From: an uncultured Clostridium sp. | GTDB taxonomy: Bacteria; Bacillota_I; Bacilli_A; RF39; UBA660 | Assembly (NCBI GenBank): GCA_946414595.1 | Contig: CAMKPE010000005.1 | Span: forward strand, 704 to 64,703 | Direction of reading: 5' to 3' | Length of the DNA stretch: 64,000 nt | Part shown: positions 9,839 to 63,325 of the stretch, piece by piece | Numbering within the stretch: position 1 is the first letter of the stretch | Layout: each line of letters opens with the position of its first letter | Made by a program: the position numbers and the translations under genes | Notes under the pieces: generated by a model | Database searches by the model: none | What the model was told of the DNA's origin: nothing | Seen by the model: the letters and a program-made list of their open reading frames with translations, nothing else

Positions 9839-9850
9839 TAAAAAAATAAA

Positions 9851-12236: not shown

Positions 12237-12237
12237 T

Positions 12238-12263
12238 AACTATGTATATCATAGTTTTTATTT
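12238..12263 (+). terminator. Rho-independent terminator
   Basis: Stem aactatg/catagtt followed by a T-run. Confidence 0.65.
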
Positions 12264-12340
12264 ACAAATAAAATGTTAATAAAACGCAAAAAAAAATTAA
12301 TAAAAATCTAATTATGGTATAATATTTATTAGAGGTGATA

Positions 12341-44357: not shown

Positions 44358-44358
44358 T

Positions 44359-44592: not shown

Positions 44593-44620
44593 AATAATAT
44601 AAGAATTAGAAGGTGTTTAT

Positions 44621-46936: not shown

Positions 46937-46964
46937 AAAACTATAGTATAAAACTATAGTTTTT
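46937..46964. terminator. Bidirectional terminator
   Basis: 11-bp stem aaaactatagt/actatagtttt between convergent genes. Confidence 0.8.
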
Positions 46965-49026
46965 ATTTTTTTTCTAGTCTTTGTCCTGGAGTACCAAATA
47001 CTTCAGAAATGATCTTTAATCTACTATCATCTAAAACACTACCATAAATCATAGCATTAAATATTTTCTGTTCTCTAGATAATTCATCACATTCACTATT
47101 ATTTTGTAATATAGCAAAGTTTCTTAATACTTTTTGTTTAGATATTATAATTCCATTTATGTTGTATTCTAGATCACTAATAGAGTACTTTTCTAATTCT
47201 TCAATAATAAATGATTCTTTTGGTATTCCTTTGCTTTCAGCAATTGCTTTATAGCAACTATCATCCATAAATCTATAAACAGCATTAGGAACATATCCAT
47301 CTATATCTTCATCACTAATAATATTCTTACCAACTCTAAAAGCTTGATCAGTTATCTTTGGTGATAGTTTATTATCAATTACTAAAGGAAGACCAAGTTC
47401 TCTACATAATTCCATACGTTTTAAATATGTATAAGATTCTTGCCCAATATATTTAGGATTATTTCTAATAAACTTAGAAAGACCTAATTCAATAAATCTA
47501 TCTATTATTTCAACAAGATTTGTATTTTCAAAAAATTCATAATTATTAGAAGTTGAATATCTAAGACTATAAGTATTGATTAATCTTAATACATTTTCAA
47601 GTTGTTCTCTATCTTGTAAAAGAGTAGCACTATTTCTTGATTTAGATATTGCAAAAGCATCTATCTTGTTATCTCTTAATAAATTAACGTTATTAACGAT
47701 TCTATCGAATGCAGCTTCTTTTATAGTTGTTTCTTGCATTATTTCTTCATTAATATCTTTTACAAATATTTCTGGATTTCTTTTAACAAATTCTTGACTA
47801 ATTACACTACTTGTAATCATTTTATTTACTGTTGATACTATTGCAGGTGTAGATAAAAGTAAAATATCACAAATAGGGTAGGAATCATTATAAATCTTAA
47901 TTCCTGACTCAGTTAATAATGTCATTATCTTTTCTATGTTTTCAATGTTACCATATCTAGTTAATTTAGATAGGTTTTCCATTAAATATTCATGAGTACA
48001 ACAACTCTTCTTAAATATTTTTTCTAATCTAGTCATTGTTTCTTCTTCTTTTAATCTATTAATTGTTTCATTATGGAATTGTAAGTTATGTTTTAATACA
48101 GTTCTTAATACTAAATATTTAATTCTTTCATCAGTAATACTATCTAAAGTACCTTTTGATAGATCTATTGGTCTATTTAAATTGAAAGATTTAATTATAT
48201 TGATAACTTTATCTCTTTTTCTTATGATTGAATTATTTTCTTTTTCTCTTAATCTAGGTAAGTTTTTAATTTCTGTTGCACGCTCTCTTATTGAATCTAA
48301 ACAGTCTAGTGCTTTTGTAACTCTTAATGTAATATCATAGTTTATTTCTTTTTCTCTTATTTCATCTTGTGCAATTTGCATGTAACGTGTTTGAACTATT
48401 GCGCGATAACCAGCGTTAGAAGCTAATGTAAAATTACTTATATCTTTTCCATTATCTGCTACAAAATCTTTTGCTTGCGCTGTAAATTTTAAACCATTAA
48501 CTGCTCCAGCTACTACTAAAGCATTAATTAATGGGACACCAAAATCTTCAATTAATCTAAAATACATAATCCTAGATTTATCTGTTGGGCACATAGTTCT
48601 AATTATTTTTTGAGCTTTCTCAGCAAGATCTAATAAACCTGCTTCTTTAAGCTTTAATGCGTCTTCATCGAATTCTAAATGTTCATATGGAAGAAATACA
48701 AATTCTTCTAATAAACCTTTGTCATTAAATTCTTTTACATAGTCATTAAAAATGAAACAGTAATCATAATCAGGTATTTTCTCTACATTTAATAAACTAA
48801 CTTTATCTCTTATTTCTTTATAAGTAAGTTCTGACTCACTTCCACAAAGAATTGCTATTACTAAATCTTTAACATTTATTTTTAATATAGAATCTTTTCC
48901 ATTTATATCCATTGTTTTACATATACTTTCAAGAAACTCTAATTCTTCTTTTTCATCTTCTGATAGTTCAGTACTTTTAAGTCTTTCTTTATAATAATTA
49001 TTTATATAATGTATCAATCTATCCAT
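46963..49026 (-). CDS. Hypothetical 687-aa soluble, predominantly helical protein
   Basis: Long ORF with an 8-nt overlap with the upstream 329-aa gene. No recognisable motif, TM helix or signal peptide. Confidence 0.55.
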   Translation of the reverse strand: MDRLIHYINNYYKERLKSTELSEDEKEELEFLESICKTMDINGKDSILKINVKDLVIAILCGSESELTYKEIRDKVSLLNVEKIPDYDYCFIFNDYVKEFNDKGLLEEFVFLPYEHLEFDEDALKLKEAGLLDLAEKAQKIIRTMCPTDKSRIMYFRLIEDFGVPLINALVVAGAVNGLKFTAQAKDFVADNGKDISNFTLASNAGYRAIVQTRYMQIAQDEIREKEINYDITLRVTKALDCLDSIRERATEIKNLPRLREKENNSIIRKRDKVINIIKSFNLNRPIDLSKGTLDSITDERIKYLVLRTVLKHNLQFHNETINRLKEEETMTRLEKIFKKSCCTHEYLMENLSKLTRYGNIENIEKIMTLLTESGIKIYNDSYPICDILLLSTPAIVSTVNKMITSSVISQEFVKRNPEIFVKDINEEIMQETTIKEAAFDRIVNNVNLLRDNKIDAFAISKSRNSATLLQDREQLENVLRLINTYSLRYSTSNNYEFFENTNLVEIIDRFIELGLSKFIRNNPKYIGQESYTYLKRMELCRELGLPLVIDNKLSPKITDQAFRVGKNIISDEDIDGYVPNAVYRFMDDSCYKAIAESKGIPKESFIIEELEKYSISDLEYNINGIIISKQKVLRNFAILQNNSECDELSREQKIFNAMIYGSVLDDSRLKIISEVFGTPGQRLEKK

Positions 49027-50008
49027 TTAAATCATCTCTTTTTCTTTCTTTTTTCTTACCAGTTAAAGTGAGTTTAATTCTTCTTAGGATTTCTTGATGC
49101 TCTTCTATGAAACTATCATTTGATAAAGCTTCTTTTAACATTTCTCTTTGCAATCTAAATTCTTTAGCTCTTGCTTCTAGCATTTCACGATAAGGTGCTG
49201 TATTTTGGAATCTTTTAACAAGTATTCCAAGTATAACAATTACATCATTATCAAGTCTTGTAAAGATTATTCTTGAGTCTCTTCTTCTTATTGCAGATAT
49301 TCCTTTTAATGGATTATAGTTATAGAATCTTTTTTCTCTTGTCATTTTATTCTTTTCTATATCTTCAATAATAGGTATCATATCTTCTTCATCGTTAATC
49401 TCATCTATATCTGAATCAACATAAAGTGATCCATTAGATTTTCTTAAGAATATAATTTTATTTTTATGTTCATCAAAAGTTTCTTCTATAGTTTCTTCTT
49501 GAAGATTATATGCTTTAATTATTTCAATTAATCTTCTATTATTATTAATTAAATCAATTAAATATTCTTCATCTTCTTCATTCATCATTTCATGAGCAAT
49601 TTGTATTTCACGTAATAAATATAAAAGAATAGATGAGATAATTGTGTCATAGTTAGTATCATAACTTGATGGAAGAAGTTCAGTTAAGAAGTCTTCATCA
49701 TCACAATCTTTTAAAGATAAAACGTATGGAAGCACATCAGTTAAGTTTGATTTAACTGTTGGTTTAACTTCAACGCTTTCTTCTTCCACATTATTTTTCT
49801 TTTGAACTTTTTCTTTTCTTCTTGTATGTTCAAATGACTTTTTATGCTCACTATCAACACTTAGGTTATGTTTTAAAACATCTATTAAGATTTTATTTAT
49901 ATCTTCAGAAGAAGTCTCTTCTTCACGCAAAAAAGTAACTAAACTTCTAATGTCAGTTACATAACCATATTCACCCGTAAATTTCTTAATTATTTCATTA
50001 GTTGTCAT
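49019..50008 (-). CDS. 329-aa protein with a RelE/HigB (Gp49-like) toxin-fold C-terminal domain
   Basis: The C-terminal KIIFLRKSNG...YNPLKGISAIRRRDSRIIFTRLDNDVIVILGILVKRFQNTAPYREMLEARAKEF matches the pattern of RelE/ParE/HigB toxins (L.G....R.R.g.yRiiy...d...vvil.i..K..q.tP..ei..A). AAGGGG SD. Confidence 0.55.
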   Translation of the reverse strand: MTTNEIIKKFTGEYGYVTDIRSLVTFLREEETSSEDINKILIDVLKHNLSVDSEHKKSFEHTRRKEKVQKKNNVEEESVEVKPTVKSNLTDVLPYVLSLKDCDDEDFLTELLPSSYDTNYDTIISSILLYLLREIQIAHEMMNEEDEEYLIDLINNNRRLIEIIKAYNLQEETIEETFDEHKNKIIFLRKSNGSLYVDSDIDEINDEEDMIPIIEDIEKNKMTREKRFYNYNPLKGISAIRRRDSRIIFTRLDNDVIVILGILVKRFQNTAPYREMLEARAKEFRLQREMLKEALSNDSFIEEHQEILRRIKLTLTGKKKERKRDDLNG

Positions 50009-50038
50009 ATAGCTAAAACCCCTTTAAAATCACGGCAT

Positions 50039-50067
50039 ATTATATCATATTATCTTTTCTTTGTCAA
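50039..50067 (-). promoter_or_regulatory. Consensus sigma-A promoter for the 329/687-aa operon
   Basis: The minus strand reads TTGACA (plus 50062-50067)-17 nt-TATAAT (plus 50039-50044). Confidence 0.65.
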
Positions 50068-50089
50068 TTTATGATTAATATGTTATAAT
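50061..50089 (+). promoter_or_regulatory. Sigma-A promoter for pssA-psd
   Basis: TTGTCA(50061-50066)-17 nt-TATAAT(50084-50089) with a TG extension at 50081-50082. Confidence 0.6.
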
Positions 50090-50121
50090 TATTCTATAAT
50101 GTAAAGAAAGAGGAATTATAT

Positions 50122-50754
50122 ATGTTAATAGGAAAGTATAACAAATCATTAATAATTAGTTATGTAGGAGTAATTGCAGCAGTTTTAGGATTGTACTTTT
50201 TGATACAAGACCCAACAGATTTAAAACCAACAATGATCTGTTACTTAATCGCTGGTGTTTGTGACATGCTTGATGGTATGGTTGCTAGAATGATGAAAAG
50301 AGATAAAGATGAAGAATTATTTGGTATTCAACTTGATTCACTAGCAGACACAATAGATTTCGTAGTATTTCCAATAGTAGTTGGACTTACTTTAGGTTTC
50401 TCAGAATGGTTTCAAGTAATTGGATACATTCTTCTTGCTATGGCAGGAGTACAAAGACTTTGTCATTTTAACGTATTAGTTATAAACAAGAAAGATAAAG
50501 GACCTGTTAAATACTATAGTGGATTACCAGTAACATCAACATCAATAACATATCCTATAATATATTTGATTAGTAAAATATTATTTAATATAAATAATGA
50601 TATTAATGTTTTTGAAGTATTATTTACTTTATTAACTTTTGCATCTGCAATATTATTTGTATTAAATATTAAAGTTCCAAAACCAAGAGGAAAAGCATAT
50701 CCAATAATGGGAGCTCTTGCAGTTGTTGGAGTAATTCTAATTTGCGTACTATAA
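50122..50754 (+). CDS. pssA: CDP-diacylglycerol--serine O-phosphatidyltransferase
   Basis: CDP-alcohol phosphatidyltransferase motif DMLDGMVAR(x8)G(x3)D(x3)D, within a polytopic protein. Confidence 0.85.
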   Translation: MLIGKYNKSLIISYVGVIAAVLGLYFLIQDPTDLKPTMICYLIAGVCDMLDGMVARMMKRDKDEELFGIQLDSLADTIDFVVFPIVVGLTLGFSEWFQVIGYILLAMAGVQRLCHFNVLVINKKDKGPVKYYSGLPVTSTSITYPIIYLISKILFNINNDINVFEVLFTLLTFASAILFVLNIKVPKPRGKAYPIMGALAVVGVILICVL

Positions 50755-51614
50755 TGACAAAAGTAGTAATTAGAAAGACAAATGAAATAATAGAAGAAAA
50801 AAGTCCTAAAGGGGCTAATTTTCTTTATAAAAACCTTTTTGGAAGAGTAATATTATCTCTTGCTACAAAAAGATTTGTATCATCAATTGCAGGGTGGTAT
50901 CTAAATAGAAAAAAATCAACTAAATATATAAAAGGTTTTATTGAAAGTAACAATATTGATATGAGCGACTATGTAGAAAGAGACTATAAATCATTCAATG
51001 ATTTCTTCTCAAGAGAAATAAAACCTAATAAGAGAATTTTTTCAAAAGATAAAAAAGATTTTTGTGCACCAAGTGATTCTAAACTAATAGTTTATAAAAT
51101 TACTAAAGATCAAGAATTTACTATTAAGGAAAAGAAATATACTATTAAACGTATTCTAAGAGATGAAGAGTTGGCCAAAGAATATGAAAATGGATATTTC
51201 ATGGTATTTAGATTATCAGTTGATGATTATCATAGATATGCCTATATAGATAATGGAAGAGTATTAAGTAACAAAAAGATTAAAGGTAAATATCATACAG
51301 TAGGGCCAATTGCGTTTGAACGTCATAAAGTTTATGAAGAAAATCATAGAGAATATGATGTTTTAGAAACAGAAAACTTTGGTAAAATTGTTCAAATGGA
51401 AGTTGGAGCAATGATGGTAGGTAAGATAGTTAATCATGATAAAAAGACTTTCAAAAGAGCAGAAGAAAGAGGATACTTCTTATTTGGAGGATCTACAATA
51501 GTTATCATGGTTAAAGACAATGTAATCAAAATAGATAAAGATATATTAGATAACTCTAAAAAGAACATAGAAACAAAAATCAAACAAGGAGAAAAAGTAG
51601 CAAAGGGGTTGTAA
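50754..51614 (+). CDS. psd: Phosphatidylserine decarboxylase proenzyme
   Basis: DYHRYAY and the C-terminal FLFGGST self-cleavage motif. TAATG coupling to pssA. Confidence 0.85.
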   Translation: MTKVVIRKTNEIIEEKSPKGANFLYKNLFGRVILSLATKRFVSSIAGWYLNRKKSTKYIKGFIESNNIDMSDYVERDYKSFNDFFSREIKPNKRIFSKDKKDFCAPSDSKLIVYKITKDQEFTIKEKKYTIKRILRDEELAKEYENGYFMVFRLSVDDYHRYAYIDNGRVLSNKKIKGKYHTVGPIAFERHKVYEENHREYDVLETENFGKIVQMEVGAMMVGKIVNHDKKTFKRAEERGYFLFGGSTIVIMVKDNVIKIDKDILDNSKKNIETKIKQGEKVAKGL

Positions 51615-51616
51615 TT

Positions 51617-52342
51617 ATGTGTAGTAGAAGAGCAGTATTAATAATTCATGGTTTAGCAGGTGGTACTTATGATGAAGAGCCACTTGCAAATTTTCTAGAA
51701 AAACATAGGAAGTTAGATGTTTTTTCATTCACGCTTCCAGGGCATGATGTAAAAGATAAAAGAAAAGCAACAAAGGAAGAATGGATGAAAGAATCAGAAA
51801 GACAATTAAATGACTTAATTAATTCAGGATACAAAAAGATTTATCTTGTTGGTCATAGCATGGGTGGTGTTATAGCAGCACATTTAGCAAGCAAGTATAA
51901 GCAAGTTAAAAAGCTTGTTTTAGTCGCACCAGCATTTACATCAATCGCAGCAAAAGAAGAAGGAGGACTATTAAGTGCTATTGTTAAAATACCTGAATTA
52001 ATAAAAGCTTATAGTTATAACGAATTAATGACTAGACTTAATAAACTACCAATATCAGCAGAAAAAGAATTCTTTGATCTTGTTGATACATATAAAAAAG
52101 ATATATATAAAGTAGAAGTACCAACACTATTCGTGCATGGCACAATTGACCAGGTTGTTCCTGTTAAATCTACAATAGATATATTTAATAAATATGAAAA
52201 CCATAAGAAAGTATTATTACTTGTAAAAGACTATTATCATGATGTTTTTAAAGGTAAAAAAGTATTAGAAATAAATAAAGAAATACAAACTTTCTTATTA
52301 AAAAGAAATTATAAAATAAAAGAAGAAAAATTAGAGATATAA
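51617..52342 (+). CDS. Alpha/beta hydrolase (carboxylesterase/lysophospholipase-like)
   Basis: HGLAGG oxyanion region, the GHSMGG nucleophile elbow, and C-terminal D...H. Confidence 0.75.
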   Translation: MCSRRAVLIIHGLAGGTYDEEPLANFLEKHRKLDVFSFTLPGHDVKDKRKATKEEWMKESERQLNDLINSGYKKIYLVGHSMGGVIAAHLASKYKQVKKLVLVAPAFTSIAAKEEGGLLSAIVKIPELIKAYSYNELMTRLNKLPISAEKEFFDLVDTYKKDIYKVEVPTLFVHGTIDQVVPVKSTIDIFNKYENHKKVLLLVKDYYHDVFKGKKVLEINKEIQTFLLKRNYKIKEEKLEI

Positions 52343-52397
52343 TTATTTACAAAAATAAAATATATAGTAAAATTGTATTAAGGAGACGATAAAACTT

Positions 52398-52943
52398 ATG
52401 GATGAAAACTTTATTGAAGAAGCAGAAGTAAAAATGTTAAATACTCTTGATAACTTAGAGAAAAGATTTGCAACAGTAAGAGCAGGAAGAGCAAATCCAA
52501 GTGCTCTTGATGGTGTTATGGTATCTTACTATGGTGTTGATACACCACTTAAACAACTTGCAACTATTTCAGTTCCTGAAGCAAGACAATTATTAATTAA
52601 ACCTTTTGATAGATCTTGCTTACATGCTATTGAAAAAGGAATCTTTGAAGCTGACTTAGGATTTACTCCTAATAATGACGGTGAAACAGTAAGAATTGTT
52701 ATTCCACCACTAACAGAAGACAGAAGAAAAGAACTTGCAAAACAAGTTAAAGCAATGGCAGAAGATGCTAAGGTATCTATTAGAAACACAAGAAGAGAAA
52801 CAATGGAAGATATTGAAAAAGCTGATCTTCCAGAAGATATCGAAAAAGCAAAAGATAAAGAAGTTCAAGATTTAGTAAACGAATATAATAAAAAAGTTGA
52901 AGATATGTTAAAAGTAAAAGAAGAAGAACTAATGAGCGTATAG
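52398..52943 (+). CDS. frr: Ribosome recycling factor
   Basis: RAGRANPSALDGVMVSYYG, PPLTEDRRKEL and IRNTRRE. Confidence 0.92.
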   Translation: MDENFIEEAEVKMLNTLDNLEKRFATVRAGRANPSALDGVMVSYYGVDTPLKQLATISVPEARQLLIKPFDRSCLHAIEKGIFEADLGFTPNNDGETVRIVIPPLTEDRRKELAKQVKAMAEDAKVSIRNTRRETMEDIEKADLPEDIEKAKDKEVQDLVNEYNKKVEDMLKVKEEELMSV

Positions 52944-52953
52944 TTCTTTTTTT
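52924..52953 (+). terminator. Probable terminator after frr
   Basis: aagaact/agttctt stem with an 11-nt loop, then a T-run. Confidence 0.5.
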
Positions 52954-52954
52954 A

Positions 52955-52983
52955 TTGTAAAAAAATAACAATTATGTTATAAT
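52955..52983 (+). promoter_or_regulatory. Sigma-A promoter of the first paralogue pair
   Basis: TTGTAA(52955-52960)-17 nt-TATAAT(52978-52983) with a TG extension. Confidence 0.6.
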
Positions 52984-53008
52984 ATAGAACATTTATGGGG
53001 GTATTGCT

Positions 53009-53830
53009 ATGGTGTGTTATAAAGATGAAATAGAATCTTTTAAATGGCAAGTAGAAGCAGATAAAGAAATCTTTATGCCAAGAAAAGAAGATGAATTTGC
53101 TATTTGTAGACAATTAATAAGAATGAGTTTTAATAAAATTGAACACTTGAATGTTGACCATAGAAACTTTAAAAAATTGTTTCTAAGATCTATTGACCCT
53201 CTAGGAGCAAAAACAAAAGATTATTATGTAGAAGCTACAAGCAAGATAGGACTTGAAAGAACTTCAAAAATAAGAAATGGTGACTCTATAATAGTAGGTA
53301 ATTCTAAAGATCAAACAGCATACATAACAAATAGAAAAACAAGAGAAGATGATTTCTTTGCGTTCTCACATGAAATGGGCCATTATAAAGTAATAGTAGA
53401 TTCAAGTCATGGTGATTATTTTGAATATGGTGAAGTATTGCCAATATTCTTTGAGTATCTAGCATGTAAGACAATAGATGAAAAGAATGCTTTTGAAATG
53501 TTTTTAAGAAATAGATTACAAGCAGTTAAAGGTGATGCCCAAGATTACTTCAAATTAAGAAGTGACTTAAGAGGTAATAAATCAGCAAAAGATGAATACA
53601 CAAGATTAGAAATAAAACATAGAATGCGTTACTTTATTTCAGTTGATTATGTATTACAACTAATCGAAAGATTCAAAAAGGATAGAAGTGAAGTAAGTAG
53701 AGCAATAGATGAATATCTAATAGATCATAATACATTTAAAAATCTAGAATCAAGATTAGATATTGATACAACAGGATGTAAAACTCTTCTTAGAAGAGCA
53801 AACTATTATGTAAGGGGTCCAAAATTATGA
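53009..53830 (+). CDS. HExxH zincin-like protein, array member A1 (273 aa)
   Basis: FSHEMGHY (HEMGH = nt 53369-53383), with the conserved Glu of EVLPIFFEY 17 residues after the second His. Shares the C-terminal LDIDTTGCKTLLRR box with all array members. Confidence 0.6.
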   Translation: MVCYKDEIESFKWQVEADKEIFMPRKEDEFAICRQLIRMSFNKIEHLNVDHRNFKKLFLRSIDPLGAKTKDYYVEATSKIGLERTSKIRNGDSIIVGNSKDQTAYITNRKTREDDFFAFSHEMGHYKVIVDSSHGDYFEYGEVLPIFFEYLACKTIDEKNAFEMFLRNRLQAVKGDAQDYFKLRSDLRGNKSAKDEYTRLEIKHRMRYFISVDYVLQLIERFKKDRSEVSRAIDEYLIDHNTFKNLESRLDIDTTGCKTLLRRANYYVRGPKL

Positions 53831-54648
53831 GTGAAGAATTAGATTACCAAGAAAGACTTTTTATGTTTAATTCTCAAATTGCATATGCAAATAAAACTTT
53901 TTGTGAAGATACAACTGACTATGAAGAAGTATGTGAAGCACTAGCAAATACAGAAAAAAAACAAATAGAAAGTAAAAGTGCAAGTATCAGAAAAGTTAAA
54001 AATGTTTTTTTAAGATCAATAGAAAACTTAGGTGAAGATACTATTTCTTTCTATAAAGGTGAGTTACCTAACGTAAGAATTAAAAAGAAAAAATATTTTC
54101 CAGGGCGAGTAGAGATCTCAAATGGTTCTGCAGGAATATTTGATCTTAATGGAAAGTATATATTATTCACTCATAAAAAGGATCATAACGAACAAGATAT
54201 TGCCGCAATTTATCACGAATTTGGACATATACCAGTAATAAGAGATGGTGCACACGGAGATTATTATGAATTTGATGAAGTGCTTCCAATATATTTTGAG
54301 TATATAGCATACAAGAATCTTCATCCTGAAAATCCAATGGAATTGTTTTTACAAGATAGAATAAATATTTCTATAGATCAAGCAAGATTACTTTTAAGAT
54401 ATGCAAAAGATTATTACTGCAGTGATAGCGATAAATCAAGATTCATTAGTTGTCAAATGAGAAGTAGCTTTAAATACATTAAATCTTTTGAATATGCTCT
54501 ACAATTAATTGAAAGAGAACATGAAGATAAGTTAATGACTAATTATGCTATCGATAAAGTTTTAAATGGTGAAAGTACATTTAAAGATTTAGAAGGTCTA
54601 TTGGATATAGATACACATGGATGTAAGAAAATTTTACAAAGATTATAA
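53827..54648 (+). CDS. HExxH zincin-like protein, array member A2 (273 aa)
   Basis: IYHEFGHI...DEVLPIYFEY...LDIDTHGCKKILQRL. ATGA overlap with A1. Confidence 0.6.
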   Translation: MSEELDYQERLFMFNSQIAYANKTFCEDTTDYEEVCEALANTEKKQIESKSASIRKVKNVFLRSIENLGEDTISFYKGELPNVRIKKKKYFPGRVEISNGSAGIFDLNGKYILFTHKKDHNEQDIAAIYHEFGHIPVIRDGAHGDYYEFDEVLPIYFEYIAYKNLHPENPMELFLQDRINISIDQARLLLRYAKDYYCSDSDKSRFISCQMRSSFKYIKSFEYALQLIEREHEDKLMTNYAIDKVLNGESTFKDLEGLLDIDTHGCKKILQRL

Positions 54649-54672
54649 AAACTCACAAATAGTGAGTTTTTT
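54647..54672 (+). terminator. Rho-independent terminator inside the paralogue array
   Basis: aaaactcac/gtgagtttt stem followed by a T-run. Confidence 0.85.
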
Positions 54673-54674
54673 CA

Positions 54675-54703
54675 TTGATTTATAAGGATAAAATCATTAT
54701 AAT
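54675..54703 (+). promoter_or_regulatory. Sigma-A promoter of the second (four-gene) part of the array
   Basis: TTGATT(54675-54680)-17 nt-TATAAT(54698-54703). Confidence 0.55.
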
Positions 54704-54732
54704 AGATAACTAATAAAGTTTGAGGGGATACT

Positions 54733-55608
54733 ATGGGGAATATTTTCGGTGATGAAAGAATTGATTATGAACTAGCAATACTAAAATATCGTGAAGATAT
54801 GGAATCTCTTGGTATGAGATATAAGTATTCTTATGATTCAGAAATGCTTCAATCAATTAATTTATTAGCAAGAAAACTAGTCAAACTTAAAAGAAAAGCT
54901 AATGAAAACGCACAAGGTATAGTTGACGAGGACATGATTAAGTTTTTCTTTATTGAATCCCTAAGAGTTTTAGAAAATAAAGGAATAATAGATTATTACA
55001 AAAGTATACTTAAAAGAACTGAAATAAGAAGAGATTCATCACTAGACTTTAACGATGGAAGAATAGTTAATTATGAAGATCTAGATGGTTTAACTTATTT
55101 TGATGTTAAATTACCAACAGGCAAGTTAACTCTTGAAGATGAATTTATATTTTCACATGAAATGGGACATGTTCCAGAAATAGATGTTCCAAGAAAAACT
55201 TTTTTAGAATATCAAGAAGTTTTACCTATACTTATGGAATACTTATTGTTTTTAAAAAGATATGGAAAGACTTTTGCTAAAGAATGTTTTATAGAAGAAA
55301 GAATTCCTATGGATGTAGAACATTCTGAAGAGATTAAAAGATTTCATAAAGCATGCGATAAAAATTCTAAAATACAACAGTTGTATGCTAAATTAAGACT
55401 TGCTGATTCATTTAAATATCTTGAATCAACTGAGTTTGTACTGCAACTCATCGATATATTTGAAAAAGATAAAACTAAAGTATCAAAAGAAATAGAAAAA
55501 GTAATCGAAGGTAAATCAATGATTGATGTTGCAAAAGATCTGTCTATTGATACTGCTGGTTGCAAGAGATTACTTAAAGAATATCAAAGCTACAGAAAGA
55601 GGGATTAA
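54733..55608 (+). CDS. HExxH zincin-like protein, array member A3 (291 aa)
   Basis: FSHEMGHV...QEVLPILMEY...LSIDTAGCKRLLKEY. GAGGGG SD. Confidence 0.6.
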   Translation: MGNIFGDERIDYELAILKYREDMESLGMRYKYSYDSEMLQSINLLARKLVKLKRKANENAQGIVDEDMIKFFFIESLRVLENKGIIDYYKSILKRTEIRRDSSLDFNDGRIVNYEDLDGLTYFDVKLPTGKLTLEDEFIFSHEMGHVPEIDVPRKTFLEYQEVLPILMEYLLFLKRYGKTFAKECFIEERIPMDVEHSEEIKRFHKACDKNSKIQQLYAKLRLADSFKYLESTEFVLQLIDIFEKDKTKVSKEIEKVIEGKSMIDVAKDLSIDTAGCKRLLKEYQSYRKRD

Positions 55609-55609
55609 G

Positions 55610-56389
55610 ATGGGAAGAATTATGGGAAGAAGTATGGAAACATACGATTTATCAAAAGAATTTATGAATGCAAAATTTCCAAAATATAAAAAAAATAAAA
55701 GAGTAATAACTCTCGAAGAATTAGAGAAGTGCCCTGACGCGATTAAATCTTATTTACCAGAAAGTGCAATTGAATTTATAAAAACTCATCAAATAAATAT
55801 TGTAAGGAACTTTTTTGTTCCAGGAATAATAACAATCTTTCCTGATAATATTAGAACACAAGAACCTTTTATGATTGTTCATAATAAAACTTATGAAGAA
55901 CATAAAAGAGATTTAATTTATTTTATTGGTGGACTTTTAAATAGATTAGAGGATGATCATATGGACTTGAATGCTTTAAATATCCCATGTCAGTTTGCCT
56001 CTGTCTTACCAATTCTTTTTGATTCTATATATATGAAAGAAACGGGAAGAATGGATGAAGCAAGTCTAAAATTTTTGCACGAATTAAGAGGCAATGCTAG
56101 AAGATATATAAGAACGTATGAAAAATATAATAGAAACCCTGATAACGAAGATATGAGACAATTTATTATAAATACATTAATATTCTTAATACCATTCTCA
56201 TCAATGGATGCCTCACTTCAAATAATGGAAAAATACGGTGAAGATAAAGAAGGAATGAAGAAGTTAATAGATGAATTCATAGTAAACGAAAATGGAAATC
56301 AAAGAGAACAAATCCTTCTTGATAGAGGAATAGAAACAACTGGTTTCAAATCATTAAGAAAAGAAATAGAAAGGAATAAAGTAAGATGA
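55610..56389 (+). CDS. Array member B1 (259 aa): same family, HExxH lost
   Basis: ATG 55610 lies 1 nt after the A3 stop and gives the MGRIMGRS N-terminus, which is homologous to B2 and B3. The HExxH position reads YFIGGLLNRL. It retains SVLPILFDS, SSMDASLQIM and GIETTGFKSLRKEI. Confidence 0.55.
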   Translation: MGRIMGRSMETYDLSKEFMNAKFPKYKKNKRVITLEELEKCPDAIKSYLPESAIEFIKTHQINIVRNFFVPGIITIFPDNIRTQEPFMIVHNKTYEEHKRDLIYFIGGLLNRLEDDHMDLNALNIPCQFASVLPILFDSIYMKETGRMDEASLKFLHELRGNARRYIRTYEKYNRNPDNEDMRQFIINTLIFLIPFSSMDASLQIMEKYGEDKEGMKKLIDEFIVNENGNQREQILLDRGIETTGFKSLRKEIERNKVR

Positions 56390-57228
56390 GTAGATTATTA
56401 GCAAAAAGTATAGATGTTTATAAAGCATGTAATGAAATAAATGCAATTAATATACCTAGACATAAACAAAATAGAACAAAGATAAAATGGGAAGATATTG
56501 AAACAGGAGTATATTTCATCGAATGTTATTTAAGTAAAGAAGCAGTTGATTTATTAACAAGTCATAAAATAGAAATACTAAAAGATCCTTTCTCAATGCA
56601 CGCAAGAAGTTCAGAAGTTCTAGATGATGAAACAACTAAAGTAAGTTTCCCATCATACTTTAGTGCTAAAGAAGAATATAAAAGAGATTTTGTATTCCTT
56701 TTAGGAACAATATTAAGTCTTCATAATCTTGATAAAGATAAAGGAGAATTTTCATACGAAATAACTGATGAATATAGAGAAGTCCTTCCTTTATTACTTG
56801 AATATTTATATATGAAAGATTCTTGTCAAGAAGATGCTTTTGCACTTAAAAGAATTGAAGAGTTAAAGACTAGAACAAAAGATTATACTAAAAAAGCTGA
56901 TAAATATAAAGCACAAATTGAAGAGTGCGAAAACATAGTAAAAAATCCATTCTTAACTGCAGGTATATTTGAAGAAACACTTGATTATAAACAAAAATGT
57001 ATTGATGGATTAAAAGACTTAACACATCAAACAATTATTCCTATGTCATCAATGGATGCAACATTACAGTTAATTGATAAGAATTTATCAGTAGATGAAC
57101 TATGTAGAGTAATAGCAAAACTATTTAGAAATGAATATCAAGATAGATCAAGAATAATGGAACAATATGGAGTAGAATCTAACGGATATAAAAGATTAAT
57201 AAAAGAATACGAGCAACACAAGAGGTAA
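56386..57228 (+). CDS. Array member B2 (280 aa): HExxH lost
   Basis: MSRLLAKS N-terminus. FLLGTILSLH replaces HExxH. It retains EVLPLLLEY, SSMDATLQLI and GVESNGYKRLIKEY. ATGA overlap. Confidence 0.55.
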   Translation: MSRLLAKSIDVYKACNEINAINIPRHKQNRTKIKWEDIETGVYFIECYLSKEAVDLLTSHKIEILKDPFSMHARSSEVLDDETTKVSFPSYFSAKEEYKRDFVFLLGTILSLHNLDKDKGEFSYEITDEYREVLPLLLEYLYMKDSCQEDAFALKRIEELKTRTKDYTKKADKYKAQIEECENIVKNPFLTAGIFEETLDYKQKCIDGLKDLTHQTIIPMSSMDATLQLIDKNLSVDELCRVIAKLFRNEYQDRSRIMEQYGVESNGYKRLIKEYEQHKR

Positions 57229-57230
57229 TT

Positions 57231-58076
57231 ATGAGTAGAATATTAGGGAGAAGTTATGATGTATATCTAGCATCCAAAGAATTGAAAGATGCACATATAA
57301 GAAAATACAAAGACGATCACACTAAAACATCTTGGAAAAGTATTGATGAATCTCCAGAGAAATATCAAATGTATTTACCAGATAGTGCAATAGAATATCT
57401 TACAGATAAAAAAATAAAAATATGTAAGGATCCATTCTTGTTATATACAGAAATGCAAATACCATGTAATGAGGAAGAAGATAGATACATTAAATTCCCA
57501 TCAATGATTCCAATTGAAAAATTCAAAACAGAACTTGCATACTTTATAGGAATGCTTCTTGCTGATTATCATGTAGATAATGAAGAAACATTATATTCAT
57601 TTCCAAAAGAATATAGTGATTTACTTCCATTATTAATCGTATATCTTAGATTAAAAGTTGATGGAAAAGAAGAAGAATTTAGAAAGAAGTATTTATCAAT
57701 ACTTAGTAACTATGTAGGAACATATATAACAGATTATGAAGCTTATAAAGATTTTGAAGATTTTTATGGAAGTGCAATAATATCAGAAATGACTAGAGAA
57801 CAATATGATAAACTGGTTGAACTAAGTAAAGAAAACGAAGAGAAAATGACAAGTGCAGTTGGAGAAACAATAATACAGTTATCTGCAATGGATGGAGCAC
57901 TTCAAATAATTGATAGATGTAAAAGTGAAGAAGATTTTAAAAATGTAATAGAAGCCTTATTCTTAAATAAAGATGGAGATAGATCTAGTTTACTAAGAGA
58001 ACAGGGTATAGAAAGTTATGGTTATAAAAGATTAAGAAAAGAAATTGAAGCAATAAAAAACAATTGCAAAAAATAA
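57231..58076 (+). CDS. Array member B3 (281 aa): HExxH lost
   Basis: MSRILGRS N-terminus. YFIGMLLADY replaces HExxH. It retains DLLPLLIVY, SAMDGALQII and GIESYGYKRLRKEI. Confidence 0.55.
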   Translation: MSRILGRSYDVYLASKELKDAHIRKYKDDHTKTSWKSIDESPEKYQMYLPDSAIEYLTDKKIKICKDPFLLYTEMQIPCNEEEDRYIKFPSMIPIEKFKTELAYFIGMLLADYHVDNEETLYSFPKEYSDLLPLLIVYLRLKVDGKEEEFRKKYLSILSNYVGTYITDYEAYKDFEDFYGSAIISEMTREQYDKLVELSKENEEKMTSAVGETIIQLSAMDGALQIIDRCKSEEDFKNVIEALFLNKDGDRSSLLREQGIESYGYKRLRKEIEAIKNNCKK

Positions 58077-58099
58077 TAATATGTTTTATAATCTAAAAT

Positions 58100-58322
58100 G
58101 AATATTTGATTGCGATAATTAGGAAGTAGTAGTAAAAGTACTATCTAATAGAGAGCTAGTGTTAGGTGGAAGACTAGTAAGAAAAGTATTTATGAATTCG
58201 TCCTATAGGCATTTATTAATAATAAACGGCTGCACCGTTATAGCAATGAGAGTATTTAAAAATACTAAATTAAGGTGGTACCACGAGTAAAATCGTCCTT
58301 AGGTGCTGCCTTTTTTATTTGT
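58100..58322 (+). promoter_or_regulatory. T-box riboswitch leader, Phe (UUC) specifier, upstream of pheST
   Basis: Stem-I elements (AGAGAG at ~58151, GGTGGAAG). GAA-UUC-G in the specifier position (UUC = 58197-58199). The T-box sequence AAATTAAGGTGGTACCACGAG lies at 58267-58287. The terminator 3' arm CGTCCTTAGGTGCTGCC plus T6 lies at 58293-58316. TATAAT at 58087-58092. Confidence 0.85.
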
Positions 58323-58334
58323 ATGGAGGTTATT

Positions 58335-59381
58335 ATGAAAGAAAAAGTTGAAAGCATTAAAACTGAATTAGCAAAAGATTTAAAAGATGTTAAAACAACA
58401 CAAGAAGTAGGTAATCTTAAAGTAAAATATTTAGGTAAAAAAGGTCTTGTAACAGAACTTACAAGTAATATGAAGGATTTATCTATTGAAGAGAAAAAAG
58501 AAGTAGGTCGCCTTTCTAATGAAGTTAAAAACTATGTTACAGAAGAGATTACTAAACTAGAAGAAGAAATCAACAACAAAGAACTTGAAAAGAAGTTAGC
58601 AAGCGAAAAGATTGATATTACTTTACCTAGTACAAAAGTAAATGTTGGGGGAGCAAATATCCTTGAAAAATTAATTGAAGAAGTAGAAGAGTTAGCAATA
58701 TCTATGGGTTATGATGTAGTAGAAGGGCCAGAAGTAGAAAAAGATTTATATAATTTCGAACTATTAAATCTTCCAAAAGGACATCCAGCAAGAGATGCTC
58801 AAGATACATTCTATACTGAAGGAGATACATGGCTATTAAGAAGTCAAACTTCACCAGTTCAAATTAGAACTATGTTAGCTAACGAAGAAAAAACTCCTAT
58901 TAGAATCATCTGCCCAGGTAAGACTTATAGAAGAGATGACGATGATGCTACTCACTCACATCAATTTACTCAAATTGAAGGATTATTAGTAGACAAAGAT
59001 ATTTCACTTGCAAACTTAAAAGCTACTTTCGATATTATTGCTAAGAAATTGTTTGGTAATGATAGAGAAACAAGATTTAGACCTAGCTTCTATCCATTTA
59101 CTGAACCATCAGTTGAGATGGACATATCTTGCTTTAACTGTGGTGGTAAAGGATGTAACATTTGCAAAGGTACTGGATGGATCACTGTAGGTGGTGCTGG
59201 TATCGTTCATCACAATGTATTAGATAATTGTGGTTATGATTCAAACAAATGGACAGGATTTGCCTTCGGTTTTGGAGCAGAACGTTTAGCAATGCTTAAA
59301 TATGGTATTACTGATATTAGAACATTCTATACAAATGATTTAAGAATTAAAGACACATTTGATAGAAAGGAGGCTGAATAA
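58335..59381 (+). CDS. pheS: Phenylalanine--tRNA ligase alpha subunit
   Basis: GHPARD, TSPVQIR, FRPSFYPFTEPS and GFAFGFGAERLAM. GGAGG SD precedes ATG 58335. The ORF-track extension to 58275 overlaps the T-box terminator. Confidence 0.93.
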   Translation: MKEKVESIKTELAKDLKDVKTTQEVGNLKVKYLGKKGLVTELTSNMKDLSIEEKKEVGRLSNEVKNYVTEEITKLEEEINNKELEKKLASEKIDITLPSTKVNVGGANILEKLIEEVEELAISMGYDVVEGPEVEKDLYNFELLNLPKGHPARDAQDTFYTEGDTWLLRSQTSPVQIRTMLANEEKTPIRIICPGKTYRRDDDDATHSHQFTQIEGLLVDKDISLANLKATFDIIAKKLFGNDRETRFRPSFYPFTEPSVEMDISCFNCGGKGCNICKGTGWITVGGAGIVHHNVLDNCGYDSNKWTGFAFGFGAERLAMLKYGITDIRTFYTNDLRIKDTFDRKEAE

Positions 59382-59382
59382 T

Positions 59383-61758
59383 ATGGCAATAAGCATGAAT
59401 TGGGTTAAAGAATATGTTAACCTTGATGATGTAGATTTAAAAGATTTAGCTAAGAAAATAACAGACTCCGGAGTAAATGTTGAACATGTTACTTCAAATG
59501 AATTAAATAATTTAGTAGTAGGGGAAGTATTAGAATGTGAAGATATTCCTGATACTCACTTACATAAATGTGTAGTAGATACAGGACTTGATAAAAGACA
59601 AATAGTATGTGGTGCTAATAACTGTAGAAAAGGTATTAAAGTAATAGTATCTTTACCAGGAGCAATTTTACCAGGAGGATTTGAGATTAAACCATCTGTA
59701 ATAAGAGGTGTTGAATCAAATGGTATGTTATGTGCTTTATCAGAATTAGGGCTTGAAGAAGATACACCAGAAAATCATGCTAAAGGTATCTATGAGTTAC
59801 CAGCTGATGCACCAGTTGGTGAAGATGTAGTTAAATACATGGCACTTGATGATACAATTTATGAACTTGATTTAAATCCAAATAGAAATATTGACTGTAC
59901 TAATCATATTGGATTTGCTTATGAAGTAGCATCAGTTTTAGGAAGAAAAGTAACTCTTCCAGACTTATCTACAAGTCCAATAAAAGATTCAGTTAAGAAA
60001 CATTTCTCATTAGAAATTGATACACCAAACTGTATGATGTATAATGCTAAAATGGTAACTGGAGTAAAGATTAAAGAGTCACCAGACTTCATCAAACATA
60101 GATTAATTGCAGCAGGTATGAGACCAATTAATAACGTTGTAGATATCTCTAACTACGTAATGCTTGAATTTGGTCAACCTCTACACTTCTTCGATAAAGA
60201 TAAACTAGGAGATAAGATCAAAGTAAGAATGGCTGGAGCTAATGAAACTATTATTACTTTAGACAAAAAAGAAAGAACATTAACAGAAGAAGATATAGTT
60301 ATTACTGATGGTAAGAAACCTGTATGTATCGCTGGAGTTATGGGTGGAGAAAACACTGAAGTTGATGAAAATACAAAAGATATCTTAATCGAAAGTGCAA
60401 TATTTAATTCATATAATGTAAGATATACTTCTTTAAGACTTGATTTAAGAAGTGAAGCTTCATTAAGATATGAACGTGGTCTTAACTACGAATATTGTAA
60501 TATGGCAATTGAAAGAGCATGTCATTTACTTGAAAAGTATGCTGATGGTAAAGTATTAAGCGATACTATTACACATGATGCTATAGAAAAGAAAGTAAAA
60601 GTAGCAGATGTTACACTTGATGACGTTAACAAGACTTTAGGACTTTCAATGACTAATGCTGATGTTAAGAAAAGCCTTGATAATTTAGGTTTTGAATATA
60701 AAGAAAACAAAGGAACTTATACAGTAACTATTCCTAATAGAAGATTAGATGTTGAACCTCATAGACAAGATTTAATTGAAGAAATTGGAAGACTTTATGG
60801 TTACGATAAGATTGAATCTAAACTTCCTGTTGTAGAAACAAAAGAAGGAAATTATATTGGAAGTGTTAAATATAGAAAACTTATTACAAAAAGATTAAGA
60901 GCACTTGGACTTAATGAATGCAAAACATACACTTTAATTAGTGATGAAGAAAATGAATTATTCAAATACAATAGAAAAGAATCAATCGAATTATTAAGAC
61001 CAATGAGTAATGATAAGAAAGTAATTAGACAATCATTAATCTCATCACTTTTAAAGACTTATGAATATAATAAAGCAAGAAATGTTAAAGATGTAATGAT
61101 CTATGAAATTGCAAATACTTACTATAATAAAACAGAAGAAGATACAAAGATTGCAATCTTAATGAAAGGTAACTATATTAATTCATCATGGAATCCAAAT
61201 GGAATTAAAGTAGATTTCTACTTATTAAAAGGAATCCTAGAGGACTTACTTGATTACTTAGGACTTAAAAATAGATATCAATTACAAGCAAGTGTTATTG
61301 ATGGAATACATCCAGGAATAAGCGCCGAAATAACTCTTGATAAAGAACCAATTGGATTCTTAGGAAGAGTACATCCAAATATAGCTAAAGATGAAATATA
61401 TGTACTTGAAATGTCTTTAACTAAATTAGTAGATAAGAAGATTAAACCAATTAAGTTTAAAGAATTATCTAAATATCCATCAATTGTTAAAGACTTAGCA
61501 TTCATAATCAAAAAAGATGTAACTAGTGGAGAACTTGAAGAAACAATTAAGAGAAGTGGTGGTAAACTACTTACTAACATTGATGTATTTGATGTATATA
61601 CTGGAGAAAATGTTAAAGATGATGAGAAATCAATCGCTTACTCATTAACATTCAGTGATCCTACTAAAACATTAAGTGATGAAGAAGTAATGCAAGTATT
61701 TAATAAGATAATAGAAGATGTATCTAAAAAACATAATGCAGTACTAAGAGATAAATAA
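59383..61758 (+). CDS. pheT: Phenylalanine--tRNA ligase beta subunit
   Basis: MAISMNWVKEYV start with tRNA-binding, B3/4, B5 and FDX-ACB-type regions (FDVYTGENV...KSIAYSLTF). AGGAGG SD. Confidence 0.93.
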   Translation: MAISMNWVKEYVNLDDVDLKDLAKKITDSGVNVEHVTSNELNNLVVGEVLECEDIPDTHLHKCVVDTGLDKRQIVCGANNCRKGIKVIVSLPGAILPGGFEIKPSVIRGVESNGMLCALSELGLEEDTPENHAKGIYELPADAPVGEDVVKYMALDDTIYELDLNPNRNIDCTNHIGFAYEVASVLGRKVTLPDLSTSPIKDSVKKHFSLEIDTPNCMMYNAKMVTGVKIKESPDFIKHRLIAAGMRPINNVVDISNYVMLEFGQPLHFFDKDKLGDKIKVRMAGANETIITLDKKERTLTEEDIVITDGKKPVCIAGVMGGENTEVDENTKDILIESAIFNSYNVRYTSLRLDLRSEASLRYERGLNYEYCNMAIERACHLLEKYADGKVLSDTITHDAIEKKVKVADVTLDDVNKTLGLSMTNADVKKSLDNLGFEYKENKGTYTVTIPNRRLDVEPHRQDLIEEIGRLYGYDKIESKLPVVETKEGNYIGSVKYRKLITKRLRALGLNECKTYTLISDEENELFKYNRKESIELLRPMSNDKKVIRQSLISSLLKTYEYNKARNVKDVMIYEIANTYYNKTEEDTKIAILMKGNYINSSWNPNGIKVDFYLLKGILEDLLDYLGLKNRYQLQASVIDGIHPGISAEITLDKEPIGFLGRVHPNIAKDEIYVLEMSLTKLVDKKIKPIKFKELSKYPSIVKDLAFIIKKDVTSGELEETIKRSGGKLLTNIDVFDVYTGENVKDDEKSIAYSLTFSDPTKTLSDEEVMQVFNKIIEDVSKKHNAVLRDK

Positions 61759-61762
61759 TTTA

Positions 61763-61788
61763 AAAACTACACATTTGTGTAGTTTTTT
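61763..61788 (+). terminator. Rho-independent terminator
   Basis: aaactacac/gtgtagttt stem followed by T6. Confidence 0.85.
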
Positions 61789-61813
61789 GTTATTATTAAA
61801 ATAGGTGAGAGTA

Positions 61814-63325
61814 ATGAGTTTTAAAGAAAGCTTTAAAGAAAACAAAATTACATATATCATTTTTGGCCTAATGCTATTATGGTGCATTTTATCTATTGTT
61901 CATGATATAGTTGAAAATAATAAAACAATTGAAGAACATGATTATGTTTTTTCGTATTGGAATGAAGATGATCAAGAAATATTACATGTATCAAACTTTA
62001 CTAAGAGATATGGAGTAGTTAAAGTAAGTATTCCTGATAAATGGCTTGATCATGAAACATGTAGAGTAGTAATGAACAAAGATATGTTTATTGAATATGA
62101 AGGATCATATTATTACAATAAGATAATTAAATATTATGATAGTATAGAAGATATTATATATTCAATTTCATGTGATGATGAAAAAATAGATACTTTTGAA
62201 TATCGTTACGAATTTGATTTAGATTATTCAGATGATGTAAAGGTTGAAGTGATTGAAACAAATCAAATCAAGAATTTATTTGATATCATTGATAAACCGA
62301 TAGAGACAGCTCTTTATAATGGTAATTCTATTAATGAAGAAATAAAGGAGTTAGTTCAAAAATATGGTATGGATGAAGATGAAAGTTTAATTCCTAAGGT
62401 AAAAATAATCGAAATAACTAATGAAAAACCAAGAATAAAATGCGACAGTAATATCGCAGATGATTACATACCTGTATATATGTGTTTTGATAGTGATATA
62501 GATACATTATATTTTTACACTGAAGCAAATAAAATATATGTAAACGAATATAGTAACTCAATGTTTGCTGACCTAAATAATTTAGAAGAAATTAAAGGAT
62601 TTGAAAAACTTGATTTTTCTAATGTTTCGTATATGTCATATATGTTTTCAAAAACAAATTTAAAATCTTTAGATTTTTCATCAATAAATTTGGAGAATGT
62701 TAAGAATATTTCTGGTTTATTTTATAAATCAAATATAGATAACTTGTTTTTTGCAAACATAAAAATTCCACATGTAGATTCATTATCATATGTTTATGCT
62801 GGACTTACAACACATGAAATTGATTTATGTAGCAATTTAATAGATACTAAACATATAAATGATATGTCTCATATGTTTAGTGATTCTGAAATAGATACAG
62901 TTAAATTATGCTTTGATACTTCAAACGTTAATAATACGTCTTTTATGTTTTATTATTCTAAAATAAATAATCTTGAATTATCAGATTTTAATTTATCTAA
63001 TTTGACTAAAGCATCGTATATGTTTAAAGGAAGCAGTATAGAAACACTTGATTTAAGTAAATTTGTTTTTCCAAATTTAGTTGGAAAAGATTTTGATTCT
63101 ATGTTTTCTGGTATGAGAAATCTAAAAACATTAGATATATCAAGTATTGATTACGATGATTTTGTAGATATAAAAACAAGTGAACCAGATAGAGAAACAG
63201 TAGAAAACTTCTTCAAAGGTATAGAAAAAGAAGTTAAAATAATTGTTAAAGATGAAAAAGTTAAAACTTTGATAAAGGTATACTGTCCAGATTTAAAAGA
63301 TAATAATATAGAAATCAAAAAGTAA
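61814..63325 (+). CDS. BspA-type leucine-rich-repeat surface protein (26-residue-repeat/DUF285-like), N-terminal anchor
   Basis: One TM helix, then ~25-aa repeats of the form F..L..LDLS.F..SNV.NMSYMF (for example LDFSNVSYMSYMFSKTNLKSLDFSSINLENVKNISGLFYKS). Confidence 0.65.
   Translation: MSFKESFKENKITYIIFGLMLLWCILSIVHDIVENNKTIEEHDYVFSYWNEDDQEILHVSNFTKRYGVVKVSIPDKWLDHETCRVVMNKDMFIEYEGSYYYNKIIKYYDSIEDIIYSISCDDEKIDTFEYRYEFDLDYSDDVKVEVIETNQIKNLFDIIDKPIETALYNGNSINEEIKELVQKYGMDEDESLIPKVKIIEITNEKPRIKCDSNIADDYIPVYMCFDSDIDTLYFYTEANKIYVNEYSNSMFADLNNLEEIKGFEKLDFSNVSYMSYMFSKTNLKSLDFSSINLENVKNISGLFYKSNIDNLFFANIKIPHVDSLSYVYAGLTTHEIDLCSNLIDTKHINDMSHMFSDSEIDTVKLCFDTSNVNNTSFMFYYSKINNLELSDFNLSNLTKASYMFKGSSIETLDLSKFVFPNLVGKDFDSMFSGMRNLKTLDISSIDYDDFVDIKTSEPDRETVENFFKGIEKEVKIIVKDEKVKTLIKVYCPDLKDNNIEIKK

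Follow-up and report, generated by a model that had tools for sequence, protein, structure and literature searches.

Six tandem genes at positions 53009-58076 of a 64,000-nucleotide stretch of DNA from an uncultured rumen bacterium, a Clostridium sp. (contig CAMKPE010000005.1; the whole stretch is referred to here as the window) encode distant, half-length, lineage-restricted relatives of the M3B enzyme oligoendopeptidase F (PepF). Three of the proteins, A1 to A3, carry the HExxH zinc-binding motif; in the other three, B1 to B3, this motif has been replaced. As far as domain libraries and literature searches show, the family is unannotated and undescribed, and its kind is familiar, namely an M3B-related gluzincin with pseudo-enzyme paralogues. 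An M3-like ancestry and fold can be assigned to the family with high confidence. The A proteins are likely to be catalytically competent, to judge from their sequences. The broader proposal, that the array specifies cytoplasmic mini-M3 zinc peptidases with non-catalytic paralogous partners, appears about evenly balanced when it is taken as a whole.

Homology of the six proteins and their metal site

The six homologous genes lie on the forward strand, and their coordinates, lengths and junctions agree with a first-pass annotation made from the DNA letters alone. A1 (53009-53830) and A2 (53827-54648) each encode 273 amino acids (aa) and overlap by ATGA, as do B1 (55610-56389, 259 aa) and B2 (56386-57228, 280 aa). 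A3 (54733-55608, 291 aa) is separated from B1 by 1 nucleotide (nt), and B3 (57231-58076, 281 aa) from B2 by 2 nt. A G-rich ribosome-binding site precedes each of the six genes. The start of B1 is an internal ATG of an open reading frame that begins at 55523, and gene callers report 259 aa for its orthologues.

Homology extends across both halves of the array. BLASTP expectation values (E) range from 1e-18 to 1e-42 within the A group and from 1e-26 to 1e-36 within the B group, and A1 and B1 match each other at 9e-7. Profile comparisons are stronger. The A and B profiles align over 185 columns (hhalign, probability 95.6%, E 1.3e-8), a B profile built from 40 sequences matches A1 at 1.6e-13, and an A/C profile, which includes the more distant C group described below, matches B1 at 4.6e-10. 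The proposed mutual relationship of all six proteins, A-B pairs included, is thus borne out.

The metal-site motifs lie where they had been reported. A1 contains HEMGH at residues 121-125, A2 HEFGH at 130-134 and A3 HEMGH at 142-146, in each case with the last His lying 16-17 residues ahead of the Glu of a downstream EVLP box (E142 in A1), and a second Glu follows at position 149 of A1. The corresponding alignment columns read YFIGG in B1, FLLGT in B2 and YFIGM in B3, and across the whole B clade the H, E and H positions are occupied by Y/F, F/L/Y and M/G/T, respectively. B2 retains both Glu residues of the E-x6-E segment. The B proteins also share the N-terminal box M[SG]R[IL][LM][GA][RK]S described earlier. 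The three boxes said to be common to all six proteins are present, and only the residue classes given for them were slightly too narrow: A3 has S-T-E and B3 has A-M-D in box 2, and box 3 of A2 ends in Q. None of the six proteins contains a transmembrane-grade hydrophobic stretch, the maximum Kyte-Doolittle value over 19 residues being 1.57, and they appear to be cytoplasmic, as first suggested.

Relationship to M3B oligopeptidases

Models in Pfam, NCBIfam, PADLOC and PHROG gave no significant match to any of the six proteins. A Pfam scan of 49 diverse family members returned only scattered sub-threshold matches to M48, M78 and M12, and the PF01432 (Peptidase_M3) model matched neither the six proteins nor the 49 members, even at E <= 1. 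The family is rare: when 1.84 billion representative proteins were searched exhaustively with HMMER at E <= 1e-3, 152 relatives (clusters at 50% identity) were recovered, which are nameless in every source. Most of the full-length relatives have 250-295 aa and the longest has 388 aa (P0081). A Pfam scan of this and two other longer members (P0158 and P0076) found no additional domain.

Structural comparison places the family within the M3 fold. AlphaFold2 models obtained from shallow alignments are confident for both A1 (predicted local distance difference test, pLDDT, 93; predicted template-modelling score, pTM, 0.92) and B3 (pLDDT 93.9, pTM 0.89). The six top Protein Data Bank (PDB) matches of the A1 model in Foldseek are all M3 structures (PepF 3sks, 2h1n, 2h1j and 3ce2, together with Pz-peptidase A, 3ahm, represented by two chains), with E values of 1.5e-4 to 1.2e-3 and a probability of 1.00. 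Template-modelling (TM) scores are 0.48-0.61 when normalized to the query and only 0.25-0.33 when normalized to the target. The top match of the B3 model is PepF 3sks, with a probability of 0.99. Both models thus share the neurolysin-like catalytic-domain fold of M3.

Sequence profiles supply remote links in the same direction. A search of PDB sequences with the family profile matched the M3B structure 2qr4 at E 0.008. In a profile alignment with 3sks, HExxH falls on HEAGH and EvLPiFfE on EIHSMSME. The sole non-family match among 5.8 billion proteins, P0199, carries both PF08439 (Peptidase_M3_N) and PF01432. It aligns with the family profile at 83% probability (hhalign, E 8.5e-6), with HEMGH on HEMGH and EVLPIFFE on EVASTFME. 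These two signals, 2qr4 and P0199, are remote, and no member reaches the gathering score of PF01432. Foldseek and the two profile comparisons concur that HExxH lies inside a genuine zincin fold of M3 type. Of the two resemblances put forward in the first-pass annotation, the one to M3 therefore holds, and the one to ImmA/IrrE (M78) comes down to sub-threshold matches.

The composition of the metal site follows from these alignments. The EAPSQMLE segment of thimet oligopeptidase supplies the zinc-ligand Glu with its first Glu. Among the 49 diverse members with HExxH, H121, E122, H125 and E149 never vary, and at least 90% conserve E142. Because the profile comparisons align both HExxH and E-x6-E with the M3 motifs, the EVLP Glu (E142) is the probable third zinc ligand and E149 would be the second Glu of E-x6-E; the EVLP Glu had already been proposed as part of the metal site. 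E149, invariant and 24 residues after H125, was also considered as third ligand and dropped, since the alignments with 3sks and P0199 put E142 at that position. The shorter His-to-Glu spacing reflects one shorter loop. The complete M3 zinc-site motif, HExxH with a downstream E-x-x-S/P-x-x-x-E, is found in A-type and C-type proteins and is missing from B-type proteins. In M3 enzymes, zinc is bound by the two His residues of HEXXH and one Glu (PMC7565970).

Position ~35 of the family aligns with residue ~269 of PepF, and the protein start corresponds to about residue 235 of a 587-aa PepF. The family therefore represents an M3B enzyme reduced to its catalytic half, the N-terminal domain being absent. 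Like PepF and Pz-peptidase A, its members have HExxH followed by E-x6-E and an aligned beta-sheet region before the active-site helix. They also resemble PepF in being apparently cytoplasmic and free of a signal peptide, and PepF-type enzymes provide the best structural and the only sequence-profile links. In contrast to PepF (~565-600 aa), they have ~270 aa; the first ~230 residues of PepF, with the Peptidase_M3_N region, are missing, as is probably part of the C-terminus. Both their length and the target TM-scores show that the two-domain architecture of ~600 aa, with a Peptidase_M3_N region, is absent. A further difference from PepF is the organization in arrays of several genes, some of them coding for catalytically dead paralogues. 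Searching the literature for M3B pseudo-enzymes gave nothing relevant, and a query on PepF structures brought up unrelated papers only. Thimet oligopeptidase and neurolysin (M3A) use the same zinc-ligand logic, but they are two-domain proteins of ~680 aa and are not among the A1 Foldseek matches at E <= 1e-3. As a minimal, half-length M3/PepF catalytic domain, the family shows how far this fold can be trimmed.

Evolution of the catalytic and non-catalytic paralogues

The relatives fall into three groups. Members of the A clade have HE[LMIFY]GH, those of the B clade, which is monophyletic, are without HExxH, and the more distant C proteins, of ~286 aa, have HEL[TS]H. HExxH persists in 73 of the 76 sequences of the A clade, in 15 of the 16 of the C clade and in no B-clade member. 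On this evidence, B1-B3 go back to one ancestor that lost the His-Glu-His triad and was later duplicated and retained. Other losses are independent of it. The gene at the A2 position in one related locus (P0055, locus L020) has lost HExxH, as have P0041, P0110 and P0108, the last being a single-copy C-type protein encoded beside thiF in two samples. The family thus offers a natural series from enzyme to pseudo-enzyme, with one ancient loss that later diversified and at least four recent ones.

The array evolves rapidly relative to its surroundings. Between the window and the related locus L002, nonsynonymous divergence (dN) is 0.19-0.51 for the array genes and 0.002-0.07 for the flanking genes, among which frr (ribosome recycling factor) and pheS are 100% and 97% identical, respectively. 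Array-gene dN is 5-10 times that of the neighbours. The ratio of nonsynonymous to synonymous divergence (dN/dS) is 0.22-0.53 in the array and 0.006-0.15 in the flanks; because dS is near saturation (0.65-1.0), these ratios are approximate. Amino acid identity to L002 is 46% for A1, 45% for A2, 62% for A3, 68% for B1, 57% for B2 and 70% for B3. A1, with a dN/dS of 0.53, is the fastest-evolving member and B3 the best conserved. Variation is greatest in the A proteins' N-terminal ~60 residues and at the tip of a long helical hairpin. Since all dN/dS values are below 1, every array copy is under selection.

Purifying selection on the B genes is seen across species, with dN/dS values of 0.16-0.58 for B1-B3 over three between-species comparisons (0.16-0.38 for B1 alone), and all three B orthogroups are intact in every species examined. 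The B proteins are thus homologous to the enzymes, have replaced catalytic and metal-binding residues, and remain under constraint. The combination of paralogy, a replaced site and purifying selection identifies them as pseudo-enzymes rather than decayed genes, as had been proposed. Between species, B3 and B1 retain 67-73% identity (B3 67-70%), compared with 39-47% for A1 and A2. Judged by these comparisons, constraint is stronger on the dead B3 and B1 than on the presumably live A1 and A2. A2 is the weakest member of the array: besides the motif loss at its position in L020, a frameshift breaks its orthologue in two in both L002 and L003.

Distribution and genomic context

Array loci were found in a small group of related genomes with a G+C content of 22-28% at all loci; one related species representative is a sheep-rumen metagenome-assembled genome labelled "Bacilli bacterium". 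Arrays with three A and three B genes occur in the window, L001, L002/L003, L004 and L010, those with two A and three B genes in L005 and L006, and one with two A and four B genes in L015. Two truncated loci, L016 and L017, contain two A genes and at least 2-3 B genes. The neighbourhood survey suggested at the outset thus revealed the anticipated copy-number variation, at two to three A and three to four B copies. The A genes precede the B genes in all 10 array loci (the window, L001, L002/L003, L004-L006, L010 and L015-L017).

In the window, the array is flanked upstream by frr (52398..52943, forward strand), whose L001 orthologue is 100% identical and carries the Pfam RRF domain, and downstream by the T-box leader of pheST (58106-58303, forward strand; Rfam RF00230, 112.5 bits), both as first annotated. 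The same position directly after frr is found in every array locus but L015, and pheS follows wherever the contig is long enough. Because the A-then-B array recurs across the clade, mostly after frr and with pheS following, it is a stable chromosomal, vertically inherited feature of a small low-G+C clade of Bacilli and not a recent insertion. In L015, an array at 8238-13256 lies away from frr, between a 460-aa gene before it and a 1084-aa gene after it, neither of which has a significant Pfam match. Sites other than the one after frr are therefore open to the family.

The C-type genes are single-copy and are found in sister lineages between a ThiF-family gene and the rpsP-khpA-uppS-cdsA-rseP genes. 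Examples lie at 10001-10867 in L011, 10001-10852 in L013 and 178-1026 in L018; the rbfA-thiF-rpsP region is absent from the window. This arrangement bears on the earlier suggestion that the array was inserted where uppS-cdsA belongs. That suggestion is not supported, as the frr-array-pheS order is clade-wide and in sister lineages uppS-cdsA follow rpsP-khpA, next to the single-copy family member; the expected succession of frr and uppS-cdsA does not apply to these genomes.

Searches outside cellular chromosomes were negative. No homologue was detected by tblastn in 50,697 phage records (A1 as query) or 72,556 plasmid records (A1 and B3), pattern scans of IMG/VR with the A and B alignments recovered no relatives, and the viral structures of BFVD gave nothing significant. 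Its restriction to a small number of uncultured Bacilli from rumen and gut limits the practical reach of the family.

Probable transcription units

Two conserved transcription units are likely, to judge from conserved signals in the spacers, one comprising a promoter (P1), A1, A2 and a terminator, and the other a second promoter (P2) followed by A3-B1-B2-B3. P1 (52955-52983, forward strand) is a promoter-like TTGTAA-17-TATAAT site with a TG-extended -10 element identified by consensus scan. Its TTGxxA and TGnTATAAT blocks are kept in the frr-A1 spacers of seven related loci. It is preceded on the same strand by a weak, A-U-rich hairpin at the 3' end of frr (about 52919-52953; -11 kcal/mol, z -2.0) that is followed by a U-run. 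Between A2 and A3, a terminator-like hairpin with a 10-bp stem (54647-54671, forward strand, with a T-run to 54677; -10.4 kcal/mol, z -3.8) has a conserved stem and a variable loop in the window, L001, L002, L004, L006 and L010. P2 (54675-54703, forward strand), found in the same way, reads TTGATT-17-TATAAT. Promoter-like matches are not enriched in the AT-rich window (31 found, compared with 37.5 in shuffled sequences), but P1 and P2 are nonetheless preserved in other species, within the orthologous spacers. The signals of the layout originally described are thus all present and also conserved in related loci.

The hexamers and promoter spacer of P2 are almost unchanged over five species whose coding DNA is ~78% identical. 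Within the A2-A3 spacer (window 54672-54732), the promoter spacer TATAAGGATAAAATCAT and its flanking bases are nearly invariant across the five species. This conservation exceeds the requirements of a promoter alone and may point to a binding site for a regulator.

A possible mechanism and its alternatives

The A-type proteins are probably active zinc peptidases that would, like PepF, cleave short cytoplasmic peptides. The proteins may act as oligomers in which dead B partners close or gate the A-subunit cleft or confer its specificity, and the several A and B versions would then yield a set of complexes with differing peptide preferences. M3 enzymes hold their active site at the bottom of a deep channel that restricts how large a substrate can be and is formed by two domains (PMC7565970). 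Oligomerization is likely because such a channel needs two domains and only the catalytic half is present here.

Heterodimers of active and inactive paralogues from neighbouring genes are established in M16B, where the inactive half is essential because both halves form the substrate chamber (PMC12731061). The adjacent genes for active and inactive paralogues in M16B and in the alpha and beta subunits of mitochondrial processing peptidase (MPP) serve as the model for the mechanism proposed here. In contrast to the array family, M16B enzymes have an unrelated fold with an inverzincin HxxEH motif and form proven 1:1 dimers, whereas two to three A genes accompany three to four B genes in the arrays. 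The hetero-oligomer idea is plausible, and assembly into A-B heteromers specifically appears somewhat less likely than not. Should A and B assemble, they would constitute a second, independent clamshell of active and inactive paralogues after M16B/MPP, in clan MA.

Active A peptidases with dead B partners are favoured by the strict A-then-B co-occurrence, the overlapping or 1-2 nt junctions, and the conserved internal terminator and promoter. Several observations weigh on the other side. No Pfam M3 model is significant on any of the six proteins or the 49 diverse members, and the His-to-Glu spacing is 16-17 residues, compared with ~25 in M3 enzymes. No A-B fusion protein occurs among the 152 family representatives. 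The variable copy numbers (2A+3B, 2A+4B and 3A+3B) imply that there is no fixed stoichiometry, the single C-type copy in sister lineages that a dead partner is no inherent requirement, and the loss of HExxH in single-copy P0108 that a non-catalytic role may matter in itself. A more ambitious version, in which dead paralogues of modular hetero-oligomers replace the M3 lid domain in a "split clamshell" and interchangeable subunits set the peptide range, is rather unlikely; a split-clamshell neurolysin fold is an architecture not described for the clan. Because loss of HExxH is recurrent and includes a single-copy lineage, a bolder variant may also be considered, in which the core function of the family is non-catalytic peptide binding and proteolysis an optional extra.

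The most serious competitor, itself a minority possibility, dispenses with A-B complexes. The A proteins would be peptidases acting independently, as monomers or homo-oligomers, the B proteins would have a separate non-catalytic job such as binding, sequestration or regulation, and the operon would reflect ancestry and co-regulation. The sufficiency of one C-type copy in sister lineages, the variable copy numbers and the independent loss of HExxH in P0055, P0041, P0110 and single-copy P0108 are all compatible with such a division, as are the conserved N-terminal motif and longer helical hairpin that B proteins have of their own. The fixed A-B order and co-occurrence in all 10 array loci, the translational juxtaposition of A3 and B1, and a truncated fold from which the M3 channel's second wall is missing speak instead for association. 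Outright decay is very improbable. If the B genes, possibly together with some of the A genes, were functionless relics of duplication drifting to loss, the frameshifted A2 of L002 and L003, the A2 of L020 without HExxH and the high evolutionary rates would be explained. However, the three B orthogroups are intact in every species examined, B dN/dS values are 0.16-0.58 with B3 the most conserved array gene, and the AlphaFold2 models are confident and well packed despite shallow alignments.

Conflict-related and regulatory functions also fit the data poorly. The first-pass annotation had raised decoys, an immunity-like repertoire or a defence-type system. As a conflict system, the array would act in defence against phages, for example, or provide immunity factors or decoys directed at toxins of protease or peptide nature, and its fast evolution would be the mark of an arms race. 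The elevated dN (5-10 times that of the neighbours), dN/dS values up to 0.5, tandem paralogues with variable copy number, mosaic dS between the window and L001, and a weak match of A1 to capP in PADLOC (E 0.0015 over 43 residues) might be read in this way. Such a role is nevertheless improbable. PADLOC and PHROG give no significant match, the searches of phage, plasmid and IMG/VR records found no relative, and no mobile-element gene lies nearby in the loci examined, so that neither a match to a known anti-phage system nor a mobile or defence island supports it. Moreover, 1:1 orthologues keep the same order and housekeeping site in species with ~78% DNA identity, and dN/dS is below 1 for every array gene. 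Other unannotated neighbours (687-aa, 329-aa and DUF285 proteins, described below) evolve equally fast, and a high rate alone is therefore no sign of an arms race. A regulatory role of the ImmA/IrrE (M78) type, in which A proteins cleave a repressor and B proteins act as modulators, is scarcely credible. It would account for the similarity of HE[LM]GH to M78 motifs, for weak IrrE matches in BFVD (probability <= 0.97, but E >= 0.08 and TM-score ~0.25) and for PF06114 at E 0.041 in 2 of 49 members. Yet every M78 signal is below threshold, the global fold match is M3B, E-x6-E aligns with M3, and no helix-turn-helix repressor gene was found beside the arrays. ImmA/IrrE and CapP are likewise small cytoplasmic HE[LM]GH zincins, with sub-threshold similarity only, but the array family lies outside mobile or defence contexts.

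Neighbouring genes and other features of the window

The mechanically called open reading frame of pheS starts at a GTG (58275) inside the T-box leader. The true start is probably the ATG at 58335, giving the 348 aa called in relatives. A lone tRNA gene detected by Rfam at 42007-42079 on the reverse strand has no evident link to the array.

Two overlapping genes at 46963-50008 on the reverse strand encode proteins of 687 and 329 aa without a Pfam match and are syntenic in L001, L002 and L010. Relative to L002, the proteins are 52% and 67% identical, with dN/dS values of 0.44 and 0.30, respectively, and evolve as fast as the array. In L016, an ATPase gene is followed directly by a pssA-like gene and the pair is missing at that position, so that it appears to be independent of the array. 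The DUF285 domain was first described in Mycoplasma proteins. A DUF285 protein encoded at 61805-63325 of the window is 48% identical to its counterpart in L002, compared with 95% for the neighbouring pheT.

The region 43392-63325 is 96% identical overall to L001, and its synonymous divergence is mosaic. Values of dS are high for A1 (0.40), B1 (0.32), A3 (0.21), a metallo-beta-lactamase-fold gene (0.38) and the DUF285 gene (0.40), and low for frr (0), pheS (0.014), B2 (0.026) and B3 (0.02). This pattern suggests strain recombination or a chimeric metagenome assembly.

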